NCBI GenBank assembly: GCA_038062455.1
Contig: JBBTXE010000001.1
Coordinates: forward strand, 58,371 to 122,370
Reading direction: 5' to 3'
Origin: Patescibacteria group bacterium
GTDB lineage: Bacteria; Patescibacteriota; Microgenomatia; UBA12405
Length of the DNA stretch: 64,000 bases
Position numbers and translations under genes: made by a program. Positions 8,611 to 53,511 of this stretch are shown here, one piece after another (position 1 is the stretch's first letter; the number at the start of each line of letters is the position of its first letter). The notes under the pieces were generated by a model, which saw nothing but the letters and a program-made list of their open reading frames with translations, was not told the DNA's origin and did not search any database.

Positions 8611-8621
8611 ACCGAATAGAT

Positions 8622-8652
8622 CTTGACAAAGCTTGACAAAGTATGCCATAAT
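8622..8652 (+). promoter_or_regulatory. sigma70-like promoter/operator of the TA cassette: tandem CTTGACAAAG x2, -35 TTGACA (8623-8628), 18 nt spacer, -10 CATAAT (8647-8652)
   Basis: Perfect 10-bp tandem duplication containing two TTGACA hexamers. The -10 box ends 5 nt before the ATG at 8658. Confidence 0.45.
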
Positions 8653-8657
8653 ATCTT

Positions 8658-8942
8658 ATGGCCACAGTCAATATTTCTATCACTGCCCAACAGAGCAAAA
8701 TTGTCGATCACTTTATCAAACTTTATGATTTTGAAAATAGAAGCGAGTTTTTTCGCACCCTGATTCGCTTTATTTCTCTTCGGCCTGACTTGGTTTCTCA
8801 AAGTACCACTTATCCCTTTATCGAGCCGGCCGATCGAAGTGTTAAATCGGTCATGAAGAGTTTCTCGAAAACAAAAAAATACAATCAACAGTTTTTGAAA
8901 GATTTGGAGATAGGTTTAAAGGAAAGCCAAACCTTTAATTGA
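8658..8942 (+). CDS. putative antitoxin (ribbon-helix-helix-like)
   Basis: 94 aa. The N-terminal MATVNISITAQQSKIVD beta-strand/helix pattern is typical of CopG/RHH antitoxins. Its stop overlaps the toxin start (ATGA). Confidence 0.5.
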   Translation: MATVNISITAQQSKIVDHFIKLYDFENRSEFFRTLIRFISLRPDLVSQSTTYPFIEPADRSVKSVMKSFSKTKKYNQQFLKDLEIGLKESQTFN

Positions 8943-9187
8943 TGAACAGTTTGTCTCTGACCCCCCGCCAAGACAAGTATCTTAAGGACAGGAGATTGGA
9001 AAAAAAGTTTATAAAACAACTTAATTTTCTTTTGGAAAACCCTTTTCACCCCAGTTTAAATCTTGAATTACTCGAACCCAAAGAAAAAGGTCTCTATAGC
9101 TTTCGTCTTGATCGTCAATATCGGGTTATCTTTATCTTCACCAAAGGCGATATTGAAGTTATCACTATCACCAACCATTATCGTTAA
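8939..9187 (+). CDS. RelE/ParE-family type II toxin
   Basis: 82 aa. LYSFRLDRQYRVIFIF..GDIEVITITNHY resembles the RelE/ParE core. Translationally coupled to the upstream small ORF. Confidence 0.6.
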   Translation: MMNSLSLTPRQDKYLKDRRLEKKFIKQLNFLLENPFHPSLNLELLEPKEKGLYSFRLDRQYRVIFIFTKGDIEVITITNHYR

Positions 9188-9204
9188 GTATCGAGGATTA
9201 ATTT

Positions 9205-9252
9205 AAACCGGCCGCTAACCCATGATTCTGCCCCTGATCATTGAAGGTATAG
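9205..9252 (+). repeat. diverged echo of the rnj 3' end (non-functional fragment)
   Basis: aaaccggccgcTAAcccatgattctgcccctgatcattgaaggtatag aligns with rnj 8564-8610 (TGRQPMVLPLIIEV* versus TGR*PMILPLIIEG...), with roughly four fifths of positions identical. Confidence 0.75.
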
Positions 9253-9256
9253 GTCC

Positions 9257-9664
9257 CTAAGGACTCCAGTTTCTTACTATAGGTATTTTGGTTTCAATAG
9301 GTTCCTTTGCTTTTATTTCAACCGAACAACCATCTTCAGGTCTAACCCTTCTTACTGCGATGGTGAAAGGTTCGCTATCTTCTCCATATCCTCCAACCGC
9401 TTCTCTGGTTGCCACAGGAATCCCCATATTAGCCAAGTCTTGTCTAATTTTTGCTTGTCTTTGCCATGTCGTATCAATTATTAATACAGTTGATTCAGGT
9501 TCATCAGTTAATAACTTGGCAACTTTCGCAACAGCCGGATCTAATTTAGGAGCTTTATTGTAACTCCTCCGTGCTCGAGGGATAAATTTTATTAACTCAA
9601 CCTCCTCCGGCATTGCCACTCTTACGGTTTCACCTTCCGGAATTCCGCCCCTATTTCTTGGCAT
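9257..9664 (-). CDS. hypothetical protein
   Basis: 135-aa ORF on the minority strand. No family recognised. Confidence 0.45.
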   Translation of the reverse strand: MPRNRGGIPEGETVRVAMPEEVELIKFIPRARRSYNKAPKLDPAVAKVAKLLTDEPESTVLIIDTTWQRQAKIRQDLANMGIPVATREAVGGYGEDSEPFTIAVRRVRPEDGCSVEIKAKEPIETKIPIVRNWSP

Positions 9665-9893
9665 ACAGCCGATTATAACACTAGTATCTTTTTCATATAA
9701 CCACTGTCTACTCTCGGGGTACAGGTGGGGTTATCTCGCCCGCCTTCCAACTTTATGCCAAATTAGTCGGCGGTGATATCGTTAACGATTCCAACATCAT
9801 TCATTTGCCTTGCTTCCAACTTGGGTCAGATAAAATGCTCCAGAGATTTGTAGTTGATCTGCCCGACAAATCGATCGAGGTTATTGCCAATTA

Positions 9894-11419: not shown

Positions 11420-11453
11420 TAATACTTGATACTTAATACATAATACGTAATAC
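11412..11453 (+). repeat. heptanucleotide tandem array, NTRATAC units x5-6
   Basis: catacta ataatac ttgatac ttaatac ataatac gtaatac, ending 7 nt before the ftsK ATG. Confidence 0.8.
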
Positions 11454-11460
11454 TGTATAT

Positions 11461-32226: not shown

Positions 32227-32649
32227 ATGCCCACAATTAATCAATTAATCCGAAAAAAAAGAATCGTTCGTCGGGAAAAACTTAAATCGGTTGCCCTTCG
32301 GGGTAATTTCAACAGTCTTAAAAATACTCTTGTTCCTACCTACAATCCCCAGAAAAAAGGTGTTGTCACTGTTGTCAAAACCATGACTCCCAAAAAACCT
32401 CATTCGGCTCTCCGCAAAGTTGCCAAAATCCGTTTGAGTAATCACTCCACTATTACTGCCTACATTCCCGGTATTGGCCACAATCTGGCCGAACATGGCA
32501 TCGTTTCTATCCGGGCCGGCCGGGTCCGTGACCTTCCCGGTATCCGTTATCACGTTATTCGGGGCCGCTATGATGCTTCTCCGGTGGCCGGCCGTCTTCA
32601 GTCCCGCAGTAAATACGGTGTCAAACGTCCCGCCAAAGCCACTGCCTAA
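32227..32649 (+). CDS. rpsL: 30S ribosomal protein S12
   Basis: [10 protein letters not shown]...[10 protein letters not shown] signature. Confidence 0.97.
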
Positions 32650-32690
32650 CTTTATAAACTTTACAAACTTTTTAACTTTATAAACTCAAA
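32648..32690 (+). repeat. 8-9 bp tandem repeat AACTTTAY(A) x5 filling the rpsL-rpsG spacer
   Basis: aactttat a aactttac a aacttttt aactttat a aactcaaa. Confidence 0.7.
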
Positions 32691-32692
32691 CA

Positions 32693-33175
32693 ATGTCTAG
32701 AAAAGGTCAAACTAAAATTCGTCGTCTCGAACCCGACACTCTCTACCAGAGTCCGATTGTCGCCAAATTAATTAATCGCAGTCTTAAAGACGGCAAAAAA
32801 ACTGCCGCTCAAAATCAGGTCTATAAAGCTCTGGAAATTTTGAAAAAAGAATCTAAATCCGAAGACGTTTTAACCACTCTCGAACAGGCTCTGGATAATA
32901 TCAAACCCAAGGTTGAGGTCCGCCCCCGCCGAATCGGTGGCGCTGTCTATCAAGTGCCGACTCCGGTTCGGGGTTCCCGCCAATATTCCCTGGCCATCCG
33001 TTGGCTGGTCACTGCCGCCCGGGCCCGGGCTAACAAACAATATCATACTTATGGTGAAAAACTGGCCGCCGAACTATTTTCAGCTTTCAATGGTGAAGGC
33101 GCCGCTGTTACCAAACGAAGTGAAGTTGAACGTATGGCCGAGGCCAACAAGGCGTTTTCACATATGCGTTGGTAA
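32693..33175 (+). CDS. rpsG: 30S ribosomal protein S7
   Basis: 160 aa. PDTLYQSPIVAKLIN...AEANKAFSHMRW. Confidence 0.97.
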   Translation: MSRKGQTKIRRLEPDTLYQSPIVAKLINRSLKDGKKTAAQNQVYKALEILKKESKSEDVLTTLEQALDNIKPKVEVRPRRIGGAVYQVPTPVRGSRQYSLAIRWLVTAARARANKQYHTYGEKLAAELFSAFNGEGAAVTKRSEVERMAEANKAFSHMRW

Positions 33176-33180
33176 ACTTC

Positions 33181-33960
33181 CTATAAACCTCTTGCCACTC
33201 TCCTTAAAACAACATTAGTTGTTTGTTCTGGGGTCAAAAAATGGGGAACTTGATAAGAGTCAGTATCCCTAACAAGACCTAACATGTACGGGTAAAGTGC
33301 TTTTCTAACTTCCATCGCCGACAATTCCCTTGTAGATGTAAGAAAAGAAGTGTGTAGCTCTGGCCGGTGCTTAAATAGACGAATAATATCAACTGGCCCA
33401 TCCGCTTGCATTCTGGTTATTATTTTCAACCAATAGGGGTTTTCAACATTAGCACACCAAACAGCTGGAGCAATCCGCCTATGGATCTGCAAATAATGTT
33501 CTTCGTCCGGAACATCAACTTCCTTCTCAGGCAAAAGAATCACGGCATCAACCAAACCCGACGTTGACCATAATTGTTCTCTCTGTTCAATATTAACGAT
33601 TGGCTGTCTTCCTTTTTGTCTGACAATATATGAATCTGGCTCCAGCATTAAAACAAAAGGTGTGTTTATGTCTGCCGTCAGAGCTCTAACCTCTCGCATT
33701 TCTGATACGGCCCACATATGTCCCCGGGTTCCCTCAAACCCACCCGACATTACCATCTTCCGAGCATTTTTAAAGTCACCATCAAAAATTGCACTATTCT
33801 CTTGCGCTAGACCACTATCAAACGAAAGGTTAAAAACTGGACAAGGCGGTTGGGTAAAACCCTCCCTTAGTAAAGGCAAACAATTGATGACCCAATTGGC
33901 CACCTTCCAACTCCTCCAATTTTCCCTAATATCATTCTCTACTTCATTTCTTGCGCCCAT
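33181..33960 (-). CDS. hypothetical protein with a cytidylyltransferase-like (RfaE-II/TagD-like) core and a degenerate HxGH motif
   Basis: KMVMSGGFEGTRGHMWAV...IVRQKGRQPIVNIEQREQLWSTSGLVDAVILLP parallels nucleotidyltransferase motifs GxFDxxHxGH ... R...L..L..VD.V. Confidence 0.35.
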   Translation of the reverse strand: MGARNEVENDIRENWRSWKVANWVINCLPLLREGFTQPPCPVFNLSFDSGLAQENSAIFDGDFKNARKMVMSGGFEGTRGHMWAVSEMREVRALTADINTPFVLMLEPDSYIVRQKGRQPIVNIEQREQLWSTSGLVDAVILLPEKEVDVPDEEHYLQIHRRIAPAVWCANVENPYWLKIITRMQADGPVDIIRLFKHRPELHTSFLTSTRELSAMEVRKALYPYMLGLVRDTDSYQVPHFLTPEQTTNVVLRRVARGL

Positions 33961-34004
33961 TTTTTATGAAGACAGTACAACTTAACGAACAAAGTATATC
34001 AAAA

Positions 34005-34043
34005 GCCAAAGCCAATAAAGCCTTTTCTCACATGAGGTGGTAA
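34005..34043 (+). repeat. echo of the rpsG 3' end (AKANKAFSHMRW*), non-functional fragment
   Basis: Codon-by-codon comparison with 33137-33175. The ten residues ANKAFSHMRW are identical, with six synonymous codon changes, the same stop, and a similar first few nt after the stop. Confidence 0.8.
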
Positions 34044-34056
34044 ATTTCAGGTCTCC

Positions 34057-34443
34057 TTACACATCTCCAACCACTGCTCCGAAAGTTTTCTTCTCCAGAT
34101 TCTCAATTCTATCGGTATTACTAGTTGTCTGGTGGCCGATAATCTCCCTGTATTCTCGACTCTCTTTTATCTCCAGTGCGAAAGTATCCACCGCATTCAT
34201 AATCTCTGATTTCCAATCGAGGAGTTTATTTTCAAGTTCTTTTATTCGATTTTCAACTTTCACCTCAATCAACCCTTCCAATCTCTTATTTTGTTCTTCA
34301 AGTTTTACATCCATTACCTCTCCAAGTTTCTTCTCTTGGGCCACAAGCTTGGTATCAATAAATCCGGTTAACCTTTTATCCTGAGCCTCAAGCTTGGTCT
34401 CGATCAGTTTTGAAATTTCCGAAATCAGTTTCGTATCATCCAT
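34057..34443 (-). CDS. hypothetical coiled-coil protein with four 15-aa tandem repeats
   Basis: TKLEAQDKRLTGFID / TKLVAQEKKLGEVMD / VKLEEQNKRLEGLIE / VKVENRIKELENKLL. Confidence 0.5.
   Translation of the reverse strand: MDDTKLISEISKLIETKLEAQDKRLTGFIDTKLVAQEKKLGEVMDVKLEEQNKRLEGLIEVKVENRIKELENKLLDWKSEIMNAVDTFALEIKESREYREIIGHQTTSNTDRIENLEKKTFGAVVGDV
34219..34398 (-). repeat. 45-nt in-frame tandem repeat x4 within the coiled-coil ORF
   Basis: Derived from the 15-aa periodicity of the translation (aa 16-75). Confidence 0.6.
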
Positions 34444-34447
34444 GAAA

Positions 34448-34864
34448 TTATTCTACCACTAAAATCTTTCCCGATTTTATATCCTCAAAAAACTTTTTTG
34501 TTCCCGGATATAGTGGTAAATTCAACGCTTCATCAACCGTAAACCAACCGTATTCCGAAATCTCACCACTATCAAATTTCATTTCCTGATTTTCTTTCAT
34601 TTCCACCAACCAAAACGACACGGTTTTTACCTTCGTATCCGCCGCCACTGTAACCAGTTTTTTTAACGGTACTACTTCTACCCCAATTTCTTCCTTTGTC
34701 TCCCTAATAACAGCACTTTCTTCATTTTTATCCTCCGGATTTAATCGTCCATGTGGTGGTCCCCAATGTCCATTCAATAAATCTCTCGCCTCCTTTATCA
34801 TCAAAAACTTACCATCTTTTTTTATTACCGCCACCACCCCATGACTACTAAAATCTATATCCAT
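34448..34864 (-). CDS. NUDIX hydrolase
   Basis: Nudix box GHWGPPHGRLNPEDKNEESAVIRETKEEIGVEV. Confidence 0.8.
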   Translation of the reverse strand: MDIDFSSHGVVAVIKKDGKFLMIKEARDLLNGHWGPPHGRLNPEDKNEESAVIRETKEEIGVEVVPLKKLVTVAADTKVKTVSFWLVEMKENQEMKFDSGEISEYGWFTVDEALNLPLYPGTKKFFEDIKSGKILVVE

Positions 34865-34866
34865 AG

Positions 34867-36567
34867 TTATTTTTTAAGATACGACCAAAGCAAACTAAAA
34901 TCGTTTGGTTCCAAAACAATCATTTTACAACGTTGATAGTAGGTATATCCTTCTTGTAGTTTTTTGGAGAGCGATTTCTGGCCACCATCTTTTTCATTAA
35001 AAAGAACCAACTTCTTGCCCTTGAGTAAAATATGTTCAAGGGAAATAAATTTCTTTTCTTGAAAATTAAATCGGTTTTGAAATAAACCCAAACCAAGACT
35101 TGTTGTTCCCAAAGCCGAAAAACCCACGATTTTTAGTTTTGGATTTATTTTTTTCAAATTTTCGAGAAGTTTATTTAAGTCGTCAAGGATTTTAATGTAA
35201 TAATTTTCGGTCAGAAAAAGTTTTTCCATGTGGTAGTTATGCAATGCAATTTCATTGTCTTTTTTGATGTCAAAAATATCTTTAGAACCCAAATCGGATT
35301 CAGACAATGTTCCATTCATAACTTTTTGCCAACTCGAACTTTTTAATGGCACAAATGCACAAACCCCGACAATTTTTCCACCAAACTCATAGACCATACC
35401 AAACTCCGGATTATTCGCATACCATGCTCCCATATTAGTTGGGGTAACAGGGTTTTGGGTGGGATAAACACGATTGTCAAAACCAAGTATCCGCCTATAA
35501 TCGCCTTTATCTATTGGACGGAGGTTTACTGACAACCATTGTTTTTTATTAGGGACAATCATTGGTTCGTATCCTGGACCCGTTAATGGTGTTTTGACGA
35601 TACGGAAATCAAGTTTCACCACATTTCTAGGAAATCCGCGTAAATAGTTTTCAATATTTCGGGCAAAACTTTCCTGTTTAGTCGCCGTAGCCTCTTCAGT
35701 AGTAAAACCGATTGGGAGATGAATAACGCAATTGCTAAGATGTTTGAGAACCTCTAATTGTTTCGCTTCAACCTCATCAGAATGATCAAAAATAAAGGTC
35801 ATATCATTTTTATTTAGTCTGTTAACTAATGCGTCAAAGCTTATAAGTTCCATTGGACTTGGGTTTATCAGAACCGCTCCTTTCTTTATCAAATTTATTT
35901 TCTCCCCATCTAAAAAATTTTTCGTCTCTGAGTTGAGGGAAATGTTTAGGGTAATAAAATCAGATGTTCGAATTAATTTATCTAATTCCATATACTCAAT
36001 GCCTAGATTTTTTTCTTCCGTTTCTTTTCTTCGTCTTGACCAATATCTGACATTTGCCCCAAAAGCTTTGGCAATTTCAGCGGTGCGATGCCCAATGTTA
36101 CCCAGACCAATTACCCCAAAACTTTTACCTTTTATTTCCACTCCGACAAATGTTGACCCGGAATAATTGCCCCGCCTTGCTTCATTTTTCTCCCGTTCTA
36201 TCTCCCGTATCTGATCAAAAATCCATCCAAAAGTCATCTCTACCACACCTTCGGTTGCGTAGTCTCTGACATTTGTAACTACAATCTTTTTGGAGTTACA
36301 ATACGCCAAATCTATCCCTCCGGTTCCGGTACCAAGCATCCCAATATATTTAAGATTAGGAACCATGCCAATAAACTCTTTGGTGATCTTGTCTCCGACC
36401 GGTTTTAAAAGCAGGGCATCGGCATTTTTTAGTTCAGATTGTAACTTAGGGTCATCTTTCGAGATTAAAACTTTATTTATAGTTAAAGGATCAATCCGGT
36501 GCCAATACTGTGTCCAAAGTTCAGATCCGCGATAGTTGAGAAAGACCATTTTCTTGAATTTGGTCAT
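34867..36567 (-). CDS. fusion protein: D-isomer-specific 2-hydroxyacid dehydrogenase domain plus a C-terminal GNAT-like/unknown domain
   Basis: NAD-binding GVIGLGNIGHRTAEIAKAFGANV and a downstream catalytic region in the first ~310 aa. The remaining ~250 aa has an acetyltransferase-like beta-strand pattern (GKIVGVCAFVPL). Confidence 0.6.
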   Translation of the reverse strand: MTKFKKMVFLNYRGSELWTQYWHRIDPLTINKVLISKDDPKLQSELKNADALLLKPVGDKITKEFIGMVPNLKYIGMLGTGTGGIDLAYCNSKKIVVTNVRDYATEGVVEMTFGWIFDQIREIEREKNEARRGNYSGSTFVGVEIKGKSFGVIGLGNIGHRTAEIAKAFGANVRYWSRRRKETEEKNLGIEYMELDKLIRTSDFITLNISLNSETKNFLDGEKINLIKKGAVLINPSPMELISFDALVNRLNKNDMTFIFDHSDEVEAKQLEVLKHLSNCVIHLPIGFTTEEATATKQESFARNIENYLRGFPRNVVKLDFRIVKTPLTGPGYEPMIVPNKKQWLSVNLRPIDKGDYRRILGFDNRVYPTQNPVTPTNMGAWYANNPEFGMVYEFGGKIVGVCAFVPLKSSSWQKVMNGTLSESDLGSKDIFDIKKDNEIALHNYHMEKLFLTENYYIKILDDLNKLLENLKKINPKLKIVGFSALGTTSLGLGLFQNRFNFQEKKFISLEHILLKGKKLVLFNEKDGGQKSLSKKLQEGYTYYQRCKMIVLEPNDFSLLWSYLKK

Positions 36568-36623
36568 ATTAGGAATTATATAACTTTTTGAATCTTGAGT
36601 TTTCTTTATGCTATCCTTATTTA

Positions 36624-37931
36624 ATGTCTCTATTTGGTGGTCACCGGGTGGTTATTTGGCCCAAGGCCAAAACGCTTGATATCTATCTTTCCCGATCAGA
36701 TGACAATATCCTCTCTTTTGACATCAATCTCTGGCAAGCCTTAGCCGATACCGAAATCACCCGTCTCTCTCAATTTTTAAAAAGTAACCATTTTACCTCC
36801 GCCACCGTTTTAATCGAGGACAACGTTGTTTTTACCAAATCCTTTATTTACGATCAGGCCGTCACCTCCCTTGACCCAAGAGAAGTTGTGGCTTTAGCCA
36901 AAGATATGGTTTCTTTTGACATCGACCTCAGCTCGGTCACCTTCGAGCTTGTTCCCAAAGGCGACAAAACCCTGGTCCAAACCCGGATATTTAATCAAAA
37001 AAAATTAGCCCCACTTCTGAAAAATCTGTCCCTTCTTAACTTAAAACTAAAATACTCTGCCGTTTCCGAAAGCTTGGCCAAAATTTTCTCCCGCTTTTAC
37101 CAAAAACCCTTTTTTGTCTTTTATCCTTTGGCAGATGATTCTGAATACATCGCCGCCCTTTGTGCTAAAGACAAGGTCTATTTTACCTCTCCTATCAAAA
37201 AGGCTCTTCCCGAAGTCAAAAAGATAATCAATTATTCCAAATCTTATTTTAGTACCCAAATTTCCAAAGTTTTTCTTCCTGAAAGTATTGCTGCCAACCT
37301 CGATCTGCCCGATGTTGACAAAACTACCTATGTCGAATCCCAAGTTAACATCGATATAAATTTACCCAGTAACCTCCCTCTGCCGGTAGCTGGTATAATA
37401 GGAGTACCTATGGAAAACAAAAAAAACATCCTTCCAATTATTGCTGTTTTTCTCTTCACCGCCATTATCGCCGCCGTTATTGTTTGGGTGGTTTTAACCC
37501 AGAGCAATAAAAGCAGTGATGTTACCAATCCTTCCGCCGATTTAATTACCCCCGTTTCCTCAATCGATCTTTCCCCGACTCCGGCAGTAACAGTCGTCAT
37601 GCCGTCTAAAGCTCTAAAGTTCCAAGTGCTGAATGCTACTGATATCAGCGGTCAGGCTGCCACCATCAAGGCCGAATTAGTTAAACTGGGTTTTAGTAGT
37701 GTCACTGTCGGTAATTCCCAGGGGGCAGTTACCGGCAACGAAATTCAGTTAAAATCAGCCCTATCAACCAGTTCTGCTTATTTTAAGTCCAAAATAGCCG
37801 GATTTGCTGATGCTGCTGTCGGTGAGTTAAAAACCAATTCTACTTATGATGTTATTTTCATTATCGGTGTTGACTTAAAAACCGGTCAACCTTCGGCTAC
37901 CGCCACTCCCCAATTAACCCCCGCCCAATGA
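36624..37931 (+). CDS. membrane protein with a LytR_C (LytR/CpsA/Psr C-terminal) domain
   Basis: TM helix ILPIIAVFLFTAIIAAVIVWVVL. C-terminal KFQVLNATDISGQAATIKAELVKLGF...VIFIIGVD. ATG at 36624 chosen; a TTG at 36588 is possible. Confidence 0.55.
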   Translation: MSLFGGHRVVIWPKAKTLDIYLSRSDDNILSFDINLWQALADTEITRLSQFLKSNHFTSATVLIEDNVVFTKSFIYDQAVTSLDPREVVALAKDMVSFDIDLSSVTFELVPKGDKTLVQTRIFNQKKLAPLLKNLSLLNLKLKYSAVSESLAKIFSRFYQKPFFVFYPLADDSEYIAALCAKDKVYFTSPIKKALPEVKKIINYSKSYFSTQISKVFLPESIAANLDLPDVDKTTYVESQVNIDINLPSNLPLPVAGIIGVPMENKKNILPIIAVFLFTAIIAAVIVWVVLTQSNKSSDVTNPSADLITPVSSIDLSPTPAVTVVMPSKALKFQVLNATDISGQAATIKAELVKLGFSSVTVGNSQGAVTGNEIQLKSALSTSSAYFKSKIAGFADAAVGELKTNSTYDVIFIIGVDLKTGQPSATATPQLTPAQ

Positions 37932-38944
37932 AGATACTAGTCACCGGCGGTTCCGGCTTTATCGGATCCAATTTTGTCCGTTTTTGGCTTTCCCGGCATC
38001 CCGACGACGAAGTTTCCAATCTCGATAAACTCACTTATGCCGCCAATCCCCAAAGCCTTAGCGATGTTGCCGCCAATCCTCACTATCACTTTGTCCGGGG
38101 CGATATTTGTGATCCCCTGGCAGTTGACAATTTTGTCTCTTCGGGTATTGAATTAATTGTCCATTTTGCCGCCGAATCTCACGTTGATCGTTCGTTGGAT
38201 GACCCGGAGGCTTTTCTTAAAACCAATATTTTTGGCACCCATCTTCTCCTTGAAGCCGCCAAAAAATATCAAATTCGTTTTCACCACATCTCCACCGATG
38301 AAGTTTACGGTGCTCTCCCCCTCAATTCACCGGTCAAATTTAGCGAAACCACTCCCTATGATCCCCGCTCTCCCTATTCGGCCTCCAAAGCCGCTTCTGA
38401 TCATTTTGTTATGGCCTATTATCATTCTTTCGGATTATCGGTAACCATCACCAATTGTTCCAACAATTACGGCCCGTATCAGTCCCCGGAAAAATTTATT
38501 CCCCGAATGATCACCAATTTAATTGACGGTCAAAAAATTCCTATTTATGGCGATGGCCTCTATGTCCGCGATTGGCTCTATGTCGCCGACCACTGTAGTG
38601 CAATTGAGGCAGTGATTCAAAAAGGGGAAATCGGTCAAACTTACAATGTCGGCGGCTTAGTCAAAGATGTTCCCAACATCGAGATTGCCCAAACTATTTT
38701 AAAATTAATGTCCAAAGATGAATCCAGTGTTGAACACGTTCCTGACCGTCCCGGTCACGACCGCCGCTATTCGGTTGATTGGTCCAAAATAAATTCCAAA
38801 CTTGGCTGGCAGCCATCACTCACTTTCGAAGAGGGGATTGCGGCCACGATTTCATGGTATCAGGACAATGAATCATGGTGGCGGCCGATGAAAACCGAAG
38901 CCGAAGAATTTTACCGCCATCTGGCCGCCTCTCGAAAAAAATAA
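37928..38944 (+). CDS. rfbB: dTDP-glucose 4,6-dehydratase
   Basis: MKILVTGGSGFIGSNF, YSASKAASD catalytic YxxxK, and the family-typical C-terminus. Confidence 0.93.
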   Translation: MKILVTGGSGFIGSNFVRFWLSRHPDDEVSNLDKLTYAANPQSLSDVAANPHYHFVRGDICDPLAVDNFVSSGIELIVHFAAESHVDRSLDDPEAFLKTNIFGTHLLLEAAKKYQIRFHHISTDEVYGALPLNSPVKFSETTPYDPRSPYSASKAASDHFVMAYYHSFGLSVTITNCSNNYGPYQSPEKFIPRMITNLIDGQKIPIYGDGLYVRDWLYVADHCSAIEAVIQKGEIGQTYNVGGLVKDVPNIEIAQTILKLMSKDESSVEHVPDRPGHDRRYSVDWSKINSKLGWQPSLTFEEGIAATISWYQDNESWWRPMKTEAEEFYRHLAASRKK

Positions 38945-38965
38945 AATCTGCTACAATCTTTCTGT

Positions 38966-39526
38966 ATGATGAAATTTACTCCTCTATCTTTGTCGGGATT
39001 AATGTTAATCGAACCCCAAGTCTTTGGTGACGACCGCGGTTTTTTTATGGAAACATATTCCAAAAAAGAATTCACCCAAAACGGTATTAATATCGATTTT
39101 GTTCAGGATAATCATTCCCGGTCCGGCAATGGTGTTCTCCGTGGCCTTCACTTCCAAAAACCCCCTTTTGCCCAGGCCAAATTAATTCGGGTAAGCATGG
39201 GTGAAGTTCTCGATGTGGCAGTCGACATCCGCCCCGATTCTTCCACCTTTGGCAAATGGGATTCAGCCCATCTTTCAGCCGAAAATAAAAAAATGCTTTT
39301 TATTCCAGTCGGTTTTGCCCATGGTTTTTATTGTCTGACTGAAATTGTTGATTTCCAATACAAATGCAGCTCTTTCTATGATAAAGAGTCCGAAAGCGGT
39401 TTTTTATGGAACGACCCCGATGTCAATGTTGGTTGGTTGGCAGCGTCTCCTGTTCTCTCCGAAAAAGATAAATTACTGCCTTCCTTCAAATCCCAAATCA
39501 AGGATCTCAAAAAACTTGTCTGGTAA
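38966..39526 (+). CDS. rfbC: dTDP-4-dehydrorhamnose 3,5-epimerase
   Basis: FGDDRGFFMETY...VLRGLHFQ..P.AQAKL.RV..G...DVAVDIR signature. Confidence 0.92.
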   Translation: MMKFTPLSLSGLMLIEPQVFGDDRGFFMETYSKKEFTQNGINIDFVQDNHSRSGNGVLRGLHFQKPPFAQAKLIRVSMGEVLDVAVDIRPDSSTFGKWDSAHLSAENKKMLFIPVGFAHGFYCLTEIVDFQYKCSSFYDKESESGFLWNDPDVNVGWLAASPVLSEKDKLLPSFKSQIKDLKKLVW

Positions 39527-39535
39527 TTTTTATAA

Positions 39536-39570
39536 ATTATACGTAATACTTGATACTTAATACTTAATAC
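39536..39570 (+). repeat. heptanucleotide tandem array, NTRATAC units x5
   Basis: attatac gtaatac ttgatac ttaatac ttaatac, ending 5 nt before the rfbD ATG. Confidence 0.8.
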
Positions 39571-39575
39571 GTCTT

Positions 39576-40454
39576 ATGAAAATCATCGCCACCGGTATCA
39601 CCGGCTTAGTTGGTTCCCGAATTTCAGAGCTTAACCCCGATCTTTCTTTTGCCGATATTTCCATTGAATCCGGCATCAGTATTCTGGATCCAGTGGCTTT
39701 AGAAAAAGTATTTACTAACAACCCCGACGCTGTCACCGTTTTACATTTAGCCGCCTTTACTGATGTTAATGGGGCTTGGTCACAAAATAAAGACCAAAAT
39801 GGTTTATGTTTCCAGTTAAATGTCACCGGTACTCAAAATATTGTCAATCTATGTAAAAAATATGGTAAATATTTAATTCACATTTCTACCGATTATGTTT
39901 TTGACGGCACCAAGGAAGGAAAATATTTAGAAACCGATACCTCCAGTCCGATCGAATGGTATGGTGAAACCAAATATTTAGCTGAAAAAGTCGTCCTCGA
40001 TTCCGGCATCAAAGCCGCCATCCTTCGTCTGGCTTTTCCTTATCGCGCCTCTTTCGAGCCCAAAAAAGATATTGTCCGAAAATTAATTGACGGTTTTAAG
40101 GTCGGCAAACTTTATCCCCAATGGACCGATCATTTTACCTCACCCACCTTTATTGATGATATCGCTGTCGCTGTCCGTAAATTTATCGACAACCAATACA
40201 CCGGTATCTACCATTGTTGCGGCTCTTCCGCCCAGTCACCCTTTGATATGTGTCAATTAATTGCCGAAGTTTTTGGGTTTGATAAATCGTTAATTGTCGC
40301 CTCAACTTTGGCTGAATTTCTTACCACCCAGGCTCCTGGTTCCCGCCCTTGGCAAAAAAATCTCTCCCTCGATAATTCTAAAATTACCGCTCTGGGTATC
40401 AAAATGAAAACTCTCCGCGAAGGCCTTGAAGAGATGAAACGTCAGCTTTCTTAG
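39576..40454 (+). CDS. rfbD: dTDP-4-dehydrorhamnose reductase
   Basis: Rossmann N-terminus GITGLVGS, HISTDYVFDG, YGETKYLAE catalytic motif. Confidence 0.85.
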   Translation: MKIIATGITGLVGSRISELNPDLSFADISIESGISILDPVALEKVFTNNPDAVTVLHLAAFTDVNGAWSQNKDQNGLCFQLNVTGTQNIVNLCKKYGKYLIHISTDYVFDGTKEGKYLETDTSSPIEWYGETKYLAEKVVLDSGIKAAILRLAFPYRASFEPKKDIVRKLIDGFKVGKLYPQWTDHFTSPTFIDDIAVAVRKFIDNQYTGIYHCCGSSAQSPFDMCQLIAEVFGFDKSLIVASTLAEFLTTQAPGSRPWQKNLSLDNSKITALGIKMKTLREGLEEMKRQLS

Positions 40455-41634
40455 CCACCTTCTCCCCCTCCCGCACCCCAAAGTTAATCCCCCTATCTTC
40501 CGGATAAATATTGGCAAAATTCACGTTGATAATTTTTCCGGCTGTTTTTTGATAATTGATAATTGAGTGTTGATAATTGGCATCAACGATATGTTGCGCA
40601 TATTTAAATTTGAAAATATTTTTCTCTGAAATTTGTTTTTTATCAAAATCGGGTAAAATCTTTTTCAAATAATCAAAAAACTCCTGCCAAATTATTTTGT
40701 CATCAACTTTAAAATATCTATGGTTTTGAGGAAGATAGGTGCCAAGATAATAGACTTGTTTTTCTTGGTACTGAGTACTTGGTACTAAGTTCGTGTGTTG
40801 AATCATCGCCACGAAAGGGGATTTGGGATCAGTAATATTATGCCAATAAAATTTACTCAAATTTTGAGTTGATGAAAACACTGCCGTTATTGCCCCCAAA
40901 TAATCAACATTTAGTAACGCTTCCGAACTGATCACTGTATCGTAATTCGTAATTCGTAATTCGTAATTCGTAATTTTTGTATTTAGCTTTATTTCTCCCC
41001 CCAACTTCTTAATTCTCTTTTTCAGTTCTTTGATTATTTGCCCAAATCCCCCCATTAAATAACCCAATTTTTCACCACCTTTTTCGCTCGAATTGGCTCG
41101 GGTGTGAATTCGGGCCCAGAGCCAGGCCATCGAAATATCCTGATATCGATTGGCAAATTTTCCTTTTAATAACGGCTCCCAAATAATTTCATAGGCTCTT
41201 TCTCCACACCACTTTTTCATCCATTGATAGGCTAAAACATTTTCAAACTTCTGCCACTTTTTTTCTTTTTCCAAATAAATCTTTACTAAACCCAAACGAA
41301 CTTTGTCAAAAATATTTAACGGCTTAAAATGCAGTAAATCTATTGCCCCATTAAATGGCCACATTTTTTTACCAAAATATATCGCCGTTGATCCGTTAAA
41401 CCATTTTAATTTTGACGATAGTCCCAAGTCTTCAATTAATTCGATAATATATTTATCGGTTTTAAAAATATGATGATAGGCTTTCTCCAAACCCTTCCCC
41501 TCAATTTTAAAAGACCCCAAAAGTCCGCCCAATTCCTTTTCTTTTTCAAAAATCGTCACCTCGTGTCCCGCTTGTAATAATCGATACCCTGCCACCAATC
41601 CGGTTATTCCGGCTCCGATAATTGCTACCTTCAT
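40399..41634 (-). CDS. FAD/NAD(P)-binding oxidoreductase (amine oxidase/protoporphyrinogen-oxidase-like)
   Basis: MKVAIIGAGITGLVAGYRL...IFEKEKELGG dinucleotide-binding motif. Its 3' end overlaps rfbD convergently by 56 nt. Confidence 0.7.
   Translation of the reverse strand: MKVAIIGAGITGLVAGYRLLQAGHEVTIFEKEKELGGLLGSFKIEGKGLEKAYHHIFKTDKYIIELIEDLGLSSKLKWFNGSTAIYFGKKMWPFNGAIDLLHFKPLNIFDKVRLGLVKIYLEKEKKWQKFENVLAYQWMKKWCGERAYEIIWEPLLKGKFANRYQDISMAWLWARIHTRANSSEKGGEKLGYLMGGFGQIIKELKKRIKKLGGEIKLNTKITNYELRITNYDTVISSEALLNVDYLGAITAVFSSTQNLSKFYWHNITDPKSPFVAMIQHTNLVPSTQYQEKQVYYLGTYLPQNHRYFKVDDKIIWQEFFDYLKKILPDFDKKQISEKNIFKFKYAQHIVDANYQHSIINYQKTAGKIINVNFANIYPEDRGINFGVREGEKVAKKADVSSLQGLRGEFSF
40938..40975 (+). 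repeat. heptanucleotide tandem array (ATTCGTA) x4 perfect, plus degenerate/partial units, inside a CDS
   Basis: tatcgta attcgta attcgta attcgta attcgta att, read on the minus strand as KITNYELRITNYD. Confidence 0.9.
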
Positions 41635-41655
41635 TGTGCTAAAATTTTATCATTT

Positions 41656-42429
41656 ATGAAACTCACTGTTTTAGGTTGTGGTTCTTTCTTCGTTAGTGCT
41701 AATCAAACCGCCTCGGCCTTTCTGCTAGAAACCGCCGGAAAGAAGATATTGATTGATTGTGGTCCCGGCACTCTGGTTCGTCTTTCAGAACAGAAAGTAA
41801 AACTTGAGGACATCGATTATGTTTTTCTCACCCACTTCCACCCCGATCATTCCTCCGACTTGTTCCCCCTATTCATGAATTATAAATTGACTGATTTTTT
41901 TACTCCGGGCACTTTGACCAAATTTCCTGAATTCTTTGGCCCCGAAGGTTTTGATAAATTTTTTCTTGATTATTCTCACTTATGTCAATTACACAGTTAT
42001 GAAAACTGGAAAAAAATTAAACTTAATGACCATCAACCGGAAATTAAATTAGGTAATATCACTGTTAAAACCTTTAAAGTTGATCACAATGCTTTTGGTA
42101 TATTTGCCAAGGCCTATGCTCTTCGTTTCGAGGCCGAGGGTAAAACCATTGTCTTTTCCGGGGATAGTGCCATTTGCCCCGGTATCAGGCAAGCTTGTCA
42201 AGGAGCCGATCTTTTTGTTTGTGATACATCCTATCCTAAGGGTAAAAGCGCTCCTTCCCATATGGATACTATAGATATTGGTAATATTTGCCAGGCAGGT
42301 AAAGTCAAAAAAGTAGTGTTAACCCACTTTTATCCTCAGTTTGCTGATAGCGATTTTGTTTCTGAAATAAAAGAAAACTTTAATGGTGAAGTTGAAAGCT
42401 GCCACGACGGCCTGAAATTAGAATTTTAG
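41656..42429 (+). CDS. MBL-fold metallo-hydrolase (RNase Z-like)
   Basis: LTHFHPDHSSDL metal-binding motif; 257 aa. Confidence 0.7.
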   Translation: MKLTVLGCGSFFVSANQTASAFLLETAGKKILIDCGPGTLVRLSEQKVKLEDIDYVFLTHFHPDHSSDLFPLFMNYKLTDFFTPGTLTKFPEFFGPEGFDKFFLDYSHLCQLHSYENWKKIKLNDHQPEIKLGNITVKTFKVDHNAFGIFAKAYALRFEAEGKTIVFSGDSAICPGIRQACQGADLFVCDTSYPKGKSAPSHMDTIDIGNICQAGKVKKVVLTHFYPQFADSDFVSEIKENFNGEVESCHDGLKLEF

Positions 42430-42511
42430 GTCGGGCATTGTAAATTTATTTTCCCATTGCTATGATACTATGTTTATACTTCAGCTTTAATTATTATAAT
42501 AATTTATCTAA

Positions 42512-42546
42512 AAAATACGTAATACTTAATACGTAATACTTGATAC
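42512..42546 (+). repeat. heptanucleotide tandem array, NTRATAC units x5
   Basis: aaaatac gtaatac ttaatac gtaatac ttgatac, ending 9 nt before the fusA ATG. Confidence 0.8.
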
Positions 42547-42555
42547 TATTTTTAT

Positions 42556-44667
42556 ATGCCCGATGCGATTCAAGTCACCAAAAACCGGATTGTAACCATG
42601 GACAAGGTCCGAAACATCGGTATTATTGCCCATATAGACGGCGGCAAAACTACCACCACCGAACGTCTCCTTTTCTATACCGGCAAAATTCACAAAATCG
42701 GTTCCGTCGATGAAGGTACTACTACCACCGATTCCATGATTCAGGAGCGGGAGCGGGGGATTACTATCCAGTCTGCCTGTATCACTACCTTTTGGAAACA
42801 ATACCGTATTAACATTATTGACACTCCCGGCCATGTTGACTTTACTGCCGAGGTTGAACGTTCTCTTCGGGTGTTGGATGGCGCCATTATGATTTTTGAC
42901 GGTAACGCCGGTGTTCAGGCCCAATCCGAAACCGTTTGGCGCCAAGCCGACAAATATGGAGTTCCCAGAATTGCCTTTGTCAATAAAATGGACAAAATCG
43001 GTGCCTCTTTTACCAAAACCCTAGACTCCATCACCCAAAAACTCCGAGCTCCGATTGTGCCGGTAGTTATCCCGGTCGGTGAAGAGCATGCCCATATCGG
43101 AGTCATCGACCTAATGGAAATGAAAATGATTGTTTACGACAAAGATCCCGAGGGTATGGAATTCAGTGTCAAAGAAATTTCTCCGGAATATGCCAAAACG
43201 GCGAAAATTGCCCGGGCCCACATGGTCGAAAAAATTTCCGGTGTGAATGATTTGTTGATGGAGAAATTTCTAAATAACCAGGATATTTCTGTTCTCGAAC
43301 TTAAATCCGCTCTCCGTCAAGCCACTATTGCCCGCAAACTCTTTCCGGTTTTTTGTGGCGCCGCTTGGCGTAACAAAGGTATTCATCCGATTCTTGACGC
43401 TATTATTGACTATTTACCATCTCCTGTCGATTTGCCCCCAATCGAAGGTTTTGATGTCAACGGTGGTGACAAAATCACCCGAAAACCGGAAAACAATGAT
43501 CCTTTTTCCGGTCTCTTATTTAAAGTCCAATCCGATCCCCACGTTGGCACTCTATCTTATGTCCGGGTTTATTCCGGCGTGGTCAAATCCGGCTCTGAAG
43601 TCTATAACTCTACCCGCCAAAAAAGTGAACGTATCGGCCGCCTATTATTAATGCATGCCGACAAAAGGGAGGGGATTGAGGAAGGTTTTGCCGGAGAAAT
43701 TATTGCTTGTATTGGCCTCAAAGAATCCTACACCGGCGACACTCTCTGCGACAAATTTGCCCCCATTTCCCTGTCTCCGATTCAATTTCCCGATCCGGTA
43801 ATCTCACTTTCTATCGAACCGGAAACAACCGATGATCAGGAAAAAATGAGTCAAGCCCTCAACCGGCTGAGTCAGGAAGATCCCACTTTTAAAGTTTCCT
43901 ACAATCAGGAAACCGGTCAATCAATTATTGCCGGTATGGGTGAACTGTATCTGGAAATTATCGTTGACCGTCTCAAGCGTGAATTTGGCGTCAATGTTAA
44001 AACCGGTGTCCCCCAAGTGGCCTACCGGGAAACTATTTCGGCTCACGCCGAAGGCGAGGGAAAATATATCCATCAGTCCGGCGGTCATGGTCAATATGGC
44101 CACTGTAAAATCAAAGTCGAACCCAAAAACCGCGGTGAAGGGATTGAATTTGTCAATGCTATCAAAGGTGGAGCCATTCCCGGCAACTTTATTCCGGCTA
44201 TTGAAAAAGGAGTCCGGGAAACTTTAACTAAGGGAATTATTGCCGGTTATCCGGCAACCGATATTAAAGTTACCGTCTTTGATGGTTCCTACCATGATGT
44301 TGACTCTTCGGAACAGGCCTTTAAATTAGCCGGGTCCTACGCCATCAAAGACGCCTTTATTTTAGCCAGCCCCATAGTTCTCGAGCCCATCATGAAAATG
44401 GAGGTAGCCACTCCCTCCGACTTTTTAGGCACTGTTATCGGCGATCTTTCTTCCCGACGCGGTCAAATTGGCGGTACTACCGATTCTTTTGGTTTCACCA
44501 TCGTCAATGTCACTATTCCTCTAGAAGCTGTTCGCGGCTACGCCACCGTCATTCGGTCACTCACTCAAGGCCGCGGTTCTTTTTACATGGAACCCAGCCA
44601 CTACGATCCCGTCCCCCGCGATATCCAGGAAAAACTGACCATCAAAACTTCTGACAAAAAAGAATAA
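42556..44667 (+). CDS. fusA: translation elongation factor G
   Basis: 703 aa. AHIDGGKTTTTE, DTPGHVDF, NKMD GTPase motifs and domains II-V. Confidence 0.97.
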   Translation: MPDAIQVTKNRIVTMDKVRNIGIIAHIDGGKTTTTERLLFYTGKIHKIGSVDEGTTTTDSMIQERERGITIQSACITTFWKQYRINIIDTPGHVDFTAEVERSLRVLDGAIMIFDGNAGVQAQSETVWRQADKYGVPRIAFVNKMDKIGASFTKTLDSITQKLRAPIVPVVIPVGEEHAHIGVIDLMEMKMIVYDKDPEGMEFSVKEISPEYAKTAKIARAHMVEKISGVNDLLMEKFLNNQDISVLELKSALRQATIARKLFPVFCGAAWRNKGIHPILDAIIDYLPSPVDLPPIEGFDVNGGDKITRKPENNDPFSGLLFKVQSDPHVGTLSYVRVYSGVVKSGSEVYNSTRQKSERIGRLLLMHADKREGIEEGFAGEIIACIGLKESYTGDTLCDKFAPISLSPIQFPDPVISLSIEPETTDDQEKMSQALNRLSQEDPTFKVSYNQETGQSIIAGMGELYLEIIVDRLKREFGVNVKTGVPQVAYRETISAHAEGEGKYIHQSGGHGQYGHCKIKVEPKNRGEGIEFVNAIKGGAIPGNFIPAIEKGVRETLTKGIIAGYPATDIKVTVFDGSYHDVDSSEQAFKLAGSYAIKDAFILASPIVLEPIMKMEVATPSDFLGTVIGDLSSRRGQIGGTTDSFGFTIVNVTIPLEAVRGYATVIRSLTQGRGSFYMEPSHYDPVPRDIQEKLTIKTSDKKE

Positions 44668-44675
44668 AATGTTCT

Positions 44676-45278
44676 GTGGTCGTTGACGATCCTTTTCGTT
44701 TTGCTGATAAATTTGCCGTCAAATCATCCCGTTTACCAAATTGGGACTACTCATCTCCCGGAATATATTTCAATACTATTTGCACTCTCAATCACAATAA
44801 TTTCTTTGGAAAAATTGTTGATAATAAAATGGTTTTGTCGACTTGCGGTCAGATTGCTCGCGATGAATTAATTAAAACAATTCAAATTCGAAACAATATT
44901 TCCATCGACCTGTGGGTAATAATGCCCAACCATATTCATCTGTTAATCACCATTTATGATTGTCATGTAGAGACGCCCCGCGGGGCGTCTCTACGAATAA
45001 ACCCCACGTCTCTACAGCAAAATAAAGTGATAACCATATCTCAAGAAAAACGCGAGTTGTTTCAGAGGTTAAATACCAAATCAAATCAAATAGTCCCGAA
45101 AATGATTAATCAATTTAAATCACGTGTCACTCTGGTTTGCAGACAAAACAATTTCTTTTTCGCCTGGCAATCTCGTTTTTATGATGAAATCATCAAAGAC
45201 AATCAACGGTTTATGGTAGTTAAACACTATATTCAAAACAATATTGCTAACTGGAACAAAGATAAATTCTATCGATAA
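44676..45278 (+). CDS. IS200/IS605-like HUH Y1 transposase, REP-associated (RayT-like)
   Basis: HUH motif PNHIHLL and the catalytic Tyr region WQSRFYDEII. Flanked by, and interrupted in-frame by, 28-bp palindromes. The GTG start is uncertain. Confidence 0.7.
   Translation: MVVDDPFRFADKFAVKSSRLPNWDYSSPGIYFNTICTLNHNNFFGKIVDNKMVLSTCGQIARDELIKTIQIRNNISIDLWVIMPNHIHLLITIYDCHVETPRGASLRINPTSLQQNKVITISQEKRELFQRLNTKSNQIVPKMINQFKSRVTLVCRQNNFFFAWQSRFYDEIIKDNQRFMVVKHYIQNNIANWNKDKFYR
44967..44994. repeat. REP-like perfect 28-bp palindrome GTAGAGACGCCCCGCGGGGCGTCTCTAC (inside the RayT-like ORF)
   Basis: Self-complementary. Translated as VETPRGASL. The next ~22 nt resemble the sequence following the 45285 copy. 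Confidence 0.9.
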
Positions 45279-45284
45279 TAATCC

Positions 45285-45312
45285 GTAGAGACGCCCCGCG
45301 GGGCGTCTCTAC
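45285..45312. repeat. REP-like perfect 28-bp palindrome (downstream of the RayT-like ORF)
   Basis: Identical to 44967-44994. Confidence 0.9.
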
Positions 45313-45440
45313 AACTAACCCCCACATCTTTACTGATTTGAATTGATAAGAGAAATTGTAAATCAGCCATATTGCAAAGCTAGCCACCTACTGATACAAT
45401 TCTAAAGCGTTTTCCGCTATTTCTTAATGGTGGGATAATG

Positions 45441-46699: not shown

Positions 46700-46798
46700 G
46701 AATAATTTAAAAAATAAATTAATAATTAATAATTTAAAAAAATAAGTTCGATTTCTTTAGACATTAGAAATTAGGATTTAGAAATTTTTTGTATTAGT

Positions 46799-53442: not shown

Positions 53443-53476
53443 TAAATAGTTTATTTTTTAAAAAATAAAAAATTAA

Positions 53477-53511
53477 ATTCGTAATTCGTAATTGATAATT
53501 AATAATTAATA
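53477..53511 (+). repeat. heptanucleotide tandem array: ATTCGTA x2, ATTGATA, ATTAATA x2
   Basis: Ends 3 nt before the rplF ATG. Confidence 0.85.

Follow-up and report, generated by a model that had tools for sequence, protein, structure and literature searches.

A clade-wide interruption of the rpsG-fusA junction in Candidatus Shapirobacteria with an old core and patchwork edges

The genes rpsG and fusA, which encode ribosomal protein S7 and elongation factor G, are among the most stable gene pairs in bacteria. In the stretch of DNA analysed here, a 64 kb segment of a metagenome-assembled genome (MAG) of a Patescibacteria group bacterium (hereafter the window), the two genes are separated by 9.4 kb holding ten open reading frames (ORFs). 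The locus thereby raises the question whether the junction was split by a single recent insertion, as an initial annotation of the DNA had proposed, or whether the split is older and the intervening genes differ in their history. We are fairly confident of the second answer: the rpsG-fusA interval is very probably an ancient, clade-wide rearrangement of the str locus in Candidatus Shapirobacteria, a clade of the Microgenomates within the candidate phyla radiation (CPR), and not a recent island, with later gains at its edges that would have come by recombination.

By ORF map and Pfam matches the window reads rpoB-rpoC-rpsL-rpsG upstream of the interval and fusA-(Y1_Tnp-like ORF)-tuf-rpsJ-rplC downstream of it. 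The str genes thus retain their order and strand and have lost their contiguity, with ten genes between rpsG and fusA and one between fusA and tuf. Compared with the str operon of E. coli (rpsL-rpsG-fusA-tufA), the genes, their order and strand and their position 3' of rpoBC and 5' of the S10 cluster are the same; the window differs in the distance from rpsG to fusA (9.4 kb here and 3.3 to more than 10 kb across Shapirobacteria), in the divergent gene in front of fusA, in a promoter-like box belonging to fusA itself and in the variable genes between fusA and tuf. Five of the ten interval ORFs lie on the minus and five on the plus strand, as had been stated from the sequence, and the gene inventory given at that time was borne out by Pfam and NCBIfam profile matches and, for the first gene, by its fold. 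We designate the genes g1 to g10 (Table 1); the LytR_C gene (g5), rfbB, rfbC, rfbD and the gene of an FAD-dependent oxidoreductase (FAD; g9) are referred to as the core, and g1 to g4 together with the MBL-fold hydrolase gene (MBL; g10) as the edge genes.

How old is the split? The window's 17 proteins were mapped on 80 fusA loci (labelled L###) with up to 10 kb of flanking sequence and one genome per species, of which the 30 with a fusA at least 74% identical constitute the Candidatus Shapirobacteria clade; the window was placed there by its fusA relatives. The closest relative found, L100, is a 795,561-bp contig from the Joint Genome Institute (JGI) with 96.7% (rpoC) and 97.7% (fusA) amino acid identity to the window. 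In none of the 30 Shapirobacteria loci are rpsG and fusA adjacent. Every one of the 21 loci that reach rpsG shows the order rpsG, LytR_C, rfbB (usually with rfbC and rfbD), the FAD gene on the opposite strand and fusA; the spacing from rpsG to fusA in those 21 loci is 3,293-9,687 nt, and it exceeds 10 kb in L017 and L018. Immediately 5' of fusA and divergently oriented, the FAD gene is found in 29 of the 30 loci, the thirtieth contig (L024) being too short. Loci with a fusA at most 63% identical, which belong to other Microgenomates, Saccharibacteria, Firmicutes, Chloroflexi, Proteobacteria and others, have rpsG and fusA 13-700 nt apart, with the exceptions of L036, L039 and L048. The split is therefore a derived state, close spacing being kept in other Microgenomates and other phyla, and the core is ancestral to the clade, because its order is common to all sampled Shapirobacteria while rpsG and fusA are near-adjacent in nearly all more distant genomes. 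LytR_C, RmlB with or without RmlC and RmlD, and the divergent FAD oxidoreductase would have been in place between rpsG and fusA ahead of the divergence of the sampled Shapirobacteria.

The distant genomes thus agree with the initial annotation that a junction normally closed is split here. Its further claim of a single inserted 9.4 kb island does not hold, since all sampled Shapirobacteria species have the core at this site; the comparison of str-locus synteny across relatives, which it had proposed as a check, returned a clade-wide core order, the very outcome that it had named as speaking against an insertion. Literature searches on the str operon or rhamnose in Shapirobacteria or Patescibacteria found nothing relevant.

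As the source is a MAG, an assembly or binning artefact, that is a chimeric contig, has to be considered as well. However, Logan assemblies made independently for at least eight sequencing runs of different samples have the identical gene order from rpoB through FAD, and the arrangement is therefore not an assembly artefact; moreover, the core order is common to dozens of MAGs from other studies. We give a chimera practically no credence.

Two observations concern the surroundings of the clade. L048, a Microgenomates locus from outside Shapirobacteria, has an independent 2.2 kb split of rpsG and fusA (7847-9888) that is occupied by two secreted-looking proteins of about 340 amino acids. In L045 (665-1384), L046 (614-1327) and L063 (211-924), other Microgenomates that keep rpsG and fusA adjacent, an RmlA-like NTP_transferase gene lies just before rpoB, about 9 kb 5' of fusA, and sugar-nucleotide genes may have been present near the rpoBC-str region before the Shapirobacteria rearrangement.

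If the core is old, could the interval as it stands in the window still be one recently acquired island, bounded by the repeated 3' end of rpsG (the rpsG echo) at one side and by the heptamer array in front of fusA at the other? The split junction, the opposite orientation of half of the genes and the duplicated rpsG end would fit such an origin. However, the core occupies this position in all 30 sampled Shapirobacteria species and in L100, the echo, which flanks g1 alone, is located 0.8 kb into the block, and the heptamer array is a generic leader element. In addition, the block lacks an integrase and a tRNA: none of its ten proteins matches a recombinase family, the window contains no tRNA and no known RNA element that could have been an integration target, its Rfam matches all being far below gathering scores, and the only transposase-like ORF (Y1_Tnp) is located outside the block, after fusA. 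As to flanking direct repeats the picture is mixed: the rpsG end and the echo flank only g1, a CATTGT..AAATTT repeat flanks the MBL segment, and none brackets the whole block. The composition of the block is normal. A compositional deviation, suggested as a further check, is absent, with z-scores of the G+C content at third codon positions (GC3) of -1.4 to +1.3 for the ten genes relative to 65 window ORFs and of -0.9 to +1.3 for the core genes. A single island of recent origin is thus highly improbable. What survives of the proposed acquisition is confined to g1 to g4 and the MBL gene, which are absent from L100; for the core it fails.

The gene order of L100 reads rpoB-rpoC-rpsL-rpsG-LytR_C-rfbB-rfbC-rfbD-(208 aa)-FAD(-)-fusA-RelB-(97 aa)-(248 aa)-tuf, without g1 to g4 and MBL. 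In blastn its alignment with the window breaks at window positions 33176/36605, where 3.4 kb in the window stand against a 117-nt spacer in L100. The alignment with L051 breaks off at 41631 and is resumed at 42436, with 0.8 kb in the window against 29 bp in L051. The MBL segment is missing from both relatives and carries a short CATTGT..AAATTT direct repeat at both ends. No tblastn match to g1, g2, g3, g4, MBL or the Y1-like protein was obtained in any of the 80 relatives' loci. A homologue of g1 (76% identical) does exist in L100, on the same contig but about 400 kb away from its str region and rfb genes; g1 homologues in other genomes (43 clusters) have unrelated neighbourhoods, and the fused form of g4 occurs in 17 clusters only, in varied and unrelated contexts. 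Judged by these contexts, g1 and g4 appear as individually mobile or shuffled genes and not as a conserved module.

Relatives, too, contain extra genes, and they do so at all four junctions of the core, namely rpsG/LytR_C, LytR_C/rfbB, rfb/FAD and FAD/fusA. NUDIX hydrolases are found between LytR_C and rfbB in L027, L028 and L038, and other cargo includes an HD-domain protein (L053), a radical SAM protein (L042), RmlD-like paralogues and several proteins of unknown type. Once the core was in place, its four junctions would have behaved as variable, recombination-prone sites at which single genes or short sets differ by species; in the lineage of the window, the four minus-strand genes would have been added behind rpsG and the MBL hydrolase gene in front of fusA. 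A defence or phage origin of the edge genes was considered and rejected: PADLOC returned only a weak match of the NUDIX protein to a candidate system and a trivial one for MBL, and PHROGs gave generic NUDIX and hydrolase families only.

The spacer between fusA and tuf contains an ORF of 200 amino acids (44676-45278) with a weak match to IS200-like Y1 transposases. The palindrome GAGACGCCCCGCGGGGCGTCTC is found inside this ORF and again after it (45283-45314), resembling an arrangement of repetitive extragenic palindromes (REP) and REP-associated tyrosine transposases (RAYT). Since this segment (44670-45371) is missing from L051 and L100 and L100 has RelB and two unknown genes in its place, the fusA-tuf spacer is a variable site as well.

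But by which route would the edge genes have arrived? An indication comes from the identity between the window and L100 at 4-fold degenerate sites, determined gene by gene. A backbone of rpoB (0.86), rpoC (0.89), LytR_C (0.91), fusA (0.81), tuf (0.83) and rpsJ (0.90) has a pooled identity of 0.86 and is interrupted by two divergent tracts, the first of which comprises rpsL (0.73) and rpsG (0.67; pooled 0.70, p = 1e-6) and the second rfbB (0.56), rfbC (0.60), rfbD (0.48) and FAD (0.55; pooled 0.55, p = 1e-40). For rpsG alone, the difference from the 0.89-0.91 of rpoC and LytR_C has a p of about 4e-6. Identity falls at the rpoC/rpsL boundary and recovers at LytR_C, the protein product of which is 94% identical to that of L100, and it falls a second time beyond about codon 40 of rfbB, to recover only at fusA. 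Within rfbB, identity to L100 drops from 0.95 in codons 1-40 to 0.72 in codons 41-80, which places an apparent recombination breakpoint near codon 40. Each divergent tract abuts one lineage-specific insertion. Moreover, window and L100 are clear sisters in fusA and tuf, whereas in FAD they are no closer to one another than either is to L051. Expression-linked codon constraint was rejected as the cause, given that LytR_C, which is no translation gene, is the best conserved and that rpsL and rpsG, which encode ribosomal proteins, belong to a divergent tract.

Because the divergent tracts abut the recent insertions, import by homologous recombination is suggested. The simplest and most likely reading is that the segments were imported from more divergent Shapirobacteria, the direction of transfer and the mechanism being what we infer from the pattern of divergence. 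The edge gains would have arrived by homologous recombination with such relatives, extra genes being carried along, and crossovers would have taken place in the conserved flanks, that is at rpoC/rpsL, at LytR_C and the 5' part of rfbB, and at the fusA promoter.

Several points weigh against an old rearrangement with edges gained in this manner. No donor was found that has rpsG beside g1 or beside g2-g4, and the contexts of the g1 and g4 homologues are unrelated. The direction of transfer is weakly indicated, the end of L100 rpsG showing 8 mismatches to the echo and 10 to the current copy, and FAD identity being 0.38 between window and L051 as against 0.54 between L100 and L051. For L036 and L039, which stand just outside the clade, the sequence upstream is too short for the original rearrangement to be dated, and the whole comparison is limited to a single genome for each species and to flanks of 10 kb or less. 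Finally, the ten proteins include no glycosyltransferase, flippase, polymerase, Wzx/Wzy or ABC export gene product.

The rpsG echo lies between g1 and g2 and encodes AKANKAFSHMRW plus stop, which compared with the end of the intact rpsG (AEANKAFSHMRW plus stop) is identical in 11 of 12 residues and in the stop codon. The two are identical in 30 of 39 nt, and the seven differences in the last ten codons are all synonymous. With 9 of 39 nt the two copies diverge as much as species do from one another, and both carry the S-H-M state that is rare among the relatives. The echo sequence is identical across six independent assemblies, and when all flanking proteins were compared with the window by tblastn at relaxed settings, no other scar inside the rpsG-fusA block emerged. 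It is thus as real as had been claimed; as the start of an island it does not serve, lying 0.83 kb inside the block. Since a decaying duplicate would not have kept its coding sense, the echo looks like the 3' end, left stranded, of another rpsG allele that was once functional. Both convergent junctions are tight (5 nt between rpsG and g1, 13 nt between echo and g2), and because of this the arrangement suggests that two different versions of an rpsG followed by a reverse-strand gene were joined by recombination. On these grounds the echo is probably the scar of one recombination event that left behind the end of a second functional rpsG allele. It also forms the end of a 25-codon, ATG-initiated mini-ORF, MKTVQLNEQSISKAKANKAFSHMRW (window 33967-34043), which is probably fortuitous.

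A repeated 3' end is also left by integrative elements that target the 3' ends of genes, such as tRNA and tmRNA islands, and the last 12 codons and stop of rpsG are indeed repeated beyond g1 with the gene itself left intact. Different from such elements, however, there is no integrase or recombinase, the copies are 77% identical with a longest exact run of 7 nt, and the segment spans one gene and about 0.87 kb.

The other proposed boundary, the heptamer array, exists and ends 9 nt before the fusA start (42514-42547), yet it marks no island end and belongs to a type of leader element seen before rfbD and in relatives as well. The array 5' of rfbD is 85% identical to it, and of the 14 short-period arrays in the window 8 stop 4-22 nt short of a start codon. 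Leader arrays lie at 11420-11454, 32648-32686, 39539-39570, 42514-42547, 46757-46786 and 53476-53511. Such arrays precede fusA in L012, L016, L018, L033, L035, L047 and L051, too. They have a period of 7 nt (some 9 nt) and 4-5 copies and occupy the position where a Shine-Dalgarno sequence would be; their units differ by gene and species (AATACTT, AATTCGT, TTACTAA, GTTCTAA and others), position and period being kept. From their distribution the arrays look like a general 5'-leader feature of Shapirobacteria and Microgenomates genomes.

Upstream of the fusA array a promoter scan detected a promoter-like box (42438-42466, TTGTAA-17-TATGAT) inside a conserved 'gctatgatactatgttta' stretch, a leader type that is conserved in L014-16, L029 and L051, and fusA is probably transcribed on its own from this predicted promoter. 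Another type of fusA leader is found in L012, L013, L017, L019, L032, L035, L037 and L042; here a conserved, -10-like 'ttcgtgttatcataat' box stands in front of a hairpin (aaagcgggt...gcccgttttt) that resembles a terminator or attenuator, about 60-110 nt 5' of fusA.

But why would envelope genes persist within the str locus at all? One explanation is selected coupling, in which the envelope/rhamnose module is co-transcribed or co-regulated with rpsL-rpsG so that the supply of wall precursors is tied to growth rate. It addresses why the arrangement persists and is compatible with an ancient rearrangement modified at its edges. The order is kept across a deep clade, in 18 of 21 relatives LytR_C is found on the same strand no more than about 110 nt behind rpsG, and several of the spacers are very short and free of hairpins (L014, L032, L015, L016). 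Then again, five relatives have a terminator-like hairpin with a T-run right after rpsG (L013, L027, L028, L029, L038), -10-like boxes in many rpsG-LytR_C spacers suggest separate transcription, and in the window rpsG and LytR_C are kept apart by 3.4 kb of genes on the other strand, so that any coupling is dispensable. Any physiological link to the translation genes is likewise something we infer, and we hold selected coupling to be possible but rather doubtful.

The rhamnose genes of the core are of unequal quality as to family assignment. RmlB and RmlC are at the equivalog level, both exceeding their NCBIfam cut-offs, whereas the RmlD-like protein is above the gathering score of PF04321 with 164 bits and below the cut-off of TIGR01214 (157.1 as against 224.05). 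The locus therefore resembles an RmlABCD cluster in having RmlB and RmlC equivalogs and an RmlD-family reductase in the usual order, and differs from it in the RmlD score and in RmlA, which neither the window nor the interval of about 28 of 30 relatives contains. The absence of rfbA from the window had been pointed out from the start, and tblastn with two Shapirobacteria RmlA-like proteins confirms that the 64 kb contain no RmlA-like gene (best E = 0.74). Within the interval rfbA is found in only 2 of about 30 Shapirobacteria species, as short RmlA-like NTP_transferases in L018 and L034; its absence is a rule of the clade and not a peculiarity of this genome. Short RmlA-like NTP_transferases are common in Shapirobacteria and usually encoded outside the interval.

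Could g1 substitute for RmlA and make the sugar nucleotide for RmlB, RmlC and RmlD? This question had been raised together with the description of g1 as a cytidylyltransferase-like protein with a degenerate HxGH motif, a description that proved correct at the level of the fold and has no counterpart among sequence models: g1, a member of a small Microgenomates family, has no Pfam or NCBIfam match even at E = 10, CTP_transf_like included. The AlphaFold (AF2) model, built on an alignment of 34 homologues, has a pLDDT (predicted local distance difference test) of 92, and its top Foldseek matches in the PDB are the cytidylyltransferases for phosphocholine (CCT), phosphoethanolamine (ECT) and glycerol-3-phosphate (TagD) and the N-domain of FAD synthetase, an FMN adenylyltransferase domain (probability 0.99-1.0, E down to 1.8e-4), with a target-normalised TM score of 0.65 and a root-mean-square deviation of 2.9 A over 109 residues on TagD (2b7l). 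Like the cytidylyltransferases and their kin (TagD, CCT/ECT, HldC, FMN adenylyltransferase), g1 has a Rossmann-like core that superposes on TagD and CCT, and in our own reading its motifs G-x-F-E/D and (H)TSFLxST resemble GxFDxxHxGH and RTxGISTT of that family. Different from them, it has about 65 N-terminal and about 50 C-terminal extra helical residues, matches no Pfam family and has the first His replaced. In its motif SGGFEG-T-x-G-H the first His of HxGH is absent, the position being T, N, S or D across the family. In four members Q stands in place of the last His, which is not among the near-invariant residues.

Some members of the HIGH fold adenylylate sugar-1-phosphates (HldC/RfaE domain II), and a HIGH-type nucleotidyltransferase fold in a window that lacks RmlA would be in keeping with such a role for g1. 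However, no relative has g1 in the neighbourhood of its rfb genes, not even L100 with its distant homologue, and homologues of g1 are not consistently linked to rfb genes; HxGH has lost its catalytic first His and varies at the second, and the RmlA-like short NTP_transferases encoded elsewhere in Shapirobacteria are common. That g1 supplies the missing nucleotidyl transfer is accordingly very unlikely, judging by the lack of rfb linkage in relatives and the loss of the first catalytic His.

As for the remaining genes (Table 1), g5 is a protein of 435 amino acids in the Logan gene calls and probably starts at 36624; neither its N-terminal part nor the C-terminal part of g4 of about 245 amino acids, searched alone, has a Pfam match at E up to 10, and g2 matches no Pfam or NCBIfam family. 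The rfbD-like ORF and the FAD ORF converge and share 56 nt (40399-40454), and the FAD protein of the window has a C-terminal extension of 14 residues relative to L100. In frame within the minus-strand FAD gene lies a perfect TCGTAAT array of 5.1 copies (40940-40975) that encodes ITNYELRITNY; at this position the L100 protein has a different insert (FNPSKSPFDKGD), which is present twice in it. The TCGTAAT array reads like the plus-strand leader arrays and has the same unit as the fusA leader of L051.

Table 1. Coordinates of the features at and around the rpsG-fusA interval (window positions)
Feature	Coordinates	Strand	Basis or remarks
rpsL (S12)	32227..32649	+	Pfam Ribosom_S12_S23; part of divergent tract 1 relative to L100
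rpsG (S7), intact, left anchor	32693..33175	+	Pfam Ribosomal_S7
Lineage-specific segment (g1-g4 and echo)	33177..36604		Replaces the 117-nt rpsG-LytR_C spacer of L100
g1, 259 aa, cytidylyltransferase fold, degenerate HxGH	33181..33960	-	AlphaFold/Foldseek; without Pfam or NCBIfam match
rpsG 3'-end echo	34005..34043	+	Encodes AKANKAFSHMRW plus stop
g2, 128-aa coiled-coil repeat protein	34057..34443	-	Without family match; internal 45-nt repeat
g3, NUDIX hydrolase	34448..34864	-	PF00293, E = 1.6e-17
g4, D-2-hydroxyacid dehydrogenase with C-terminal extra part of about 245 aa	34867..36567	-	Pfam 2-Hacid_dh, 2-Hacid_dh_C, residues 37-317
g5, membrane protein with C-terminal LytR_C domain, first conserved core gene	36588..37931	+	PF13399
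rfbB/rmlB, dTDP-glucose 4,6-dehydratase	37928..38944	+	TIGR01181, 479.6 bits (cut-off 365.1)
rfbC/rmlC, dTDP-4-dehydrorhamnose 3,5-epimerase	38966..39526	+	TIGR01221, 230.6 bits (cut-off 155.75)
rfbD/rmlD-like reductase	39576..40454	+	PF04321, E = 4e-48; heptamer array 5' at 39539-39570
g9, FAD-dependent oxidoreductase (NF005560/PRK07233 family), last core gene	40399..41634	-	NF005560, 410 bits (cut-off 252)
g10, MBL-fold hydrolase ORF	41656..42429	+	Pfam Lactamase_B_2; lineage-specific segment 41632..42435
fusA promoter-like box and heptamer leader array (42514-42547)	42438..42547	+	Promoter scan, array scan
fusA (EF-G), right anchor	42556..44667	+	Pfam EF-G domains; 97.7% aa identity to L100

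In its behaviour the interval recalls the exchanged polysaccharide loci, such as the O-antigen rfb locus between galF and gnd in E. coli and Salmonella and the cps locus between dexB and aliA in S. pneumoniae. As in these, conserved flanks enclose a variable content that includes rml cargo, raised synonymous divergence is confined to the cassette, and breakpoints lie in or beside the flanks. Different from these, translation genes serve as anchors, the variable part consists mainly of single enzymes (NUDIX, dehydrogenase, MBL) and there is a conserved core inside. Since the cassette lacks glycosyltransferase and flippase genes, the likeness is one of dynamics and not of content.

What does this mean for the biology of these bacteria? 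CPR lineages are uncultured and their surface biology is largely unknown. The split is common to a whole CPR lineage of candidate-phylum level and can be used as a taxonomic marker, and it shows that even the rpsG-fusA junction can be permanently rewired. Our results do not overturn current understanding, as the enzymes are ordinary and the dynamics are like those of well-known polysaccharide-locus evolution. The locus is a clade-defining interruption of str with an old core and patchwork edges that evolves like a recombination-exchanged envelope locus, and its mosaic divergence points to CPR lineages having exchanged DNA at such a locus by homologous recombination. It is a tentative further thought, and one that we put forward as rather unlikely, that the space between rpsG and fusA is a clade-wide hypervariable locus in which envelope-sugar and nucleotide-metabolism genes are swapped among lineages by homologous recombination anchored in the translation genes, with a speculative role for g1. 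If so, g1 might, more speculatively still, be a non-canonical sugar-phosphate nucleotidyltransferase that feeds the rhamnose pathway, and these ultra-small, probably host-attached CPR bacteria would possess an O-antigen-like diversity hotspot that could tune their surface chemistry or partner specificity.

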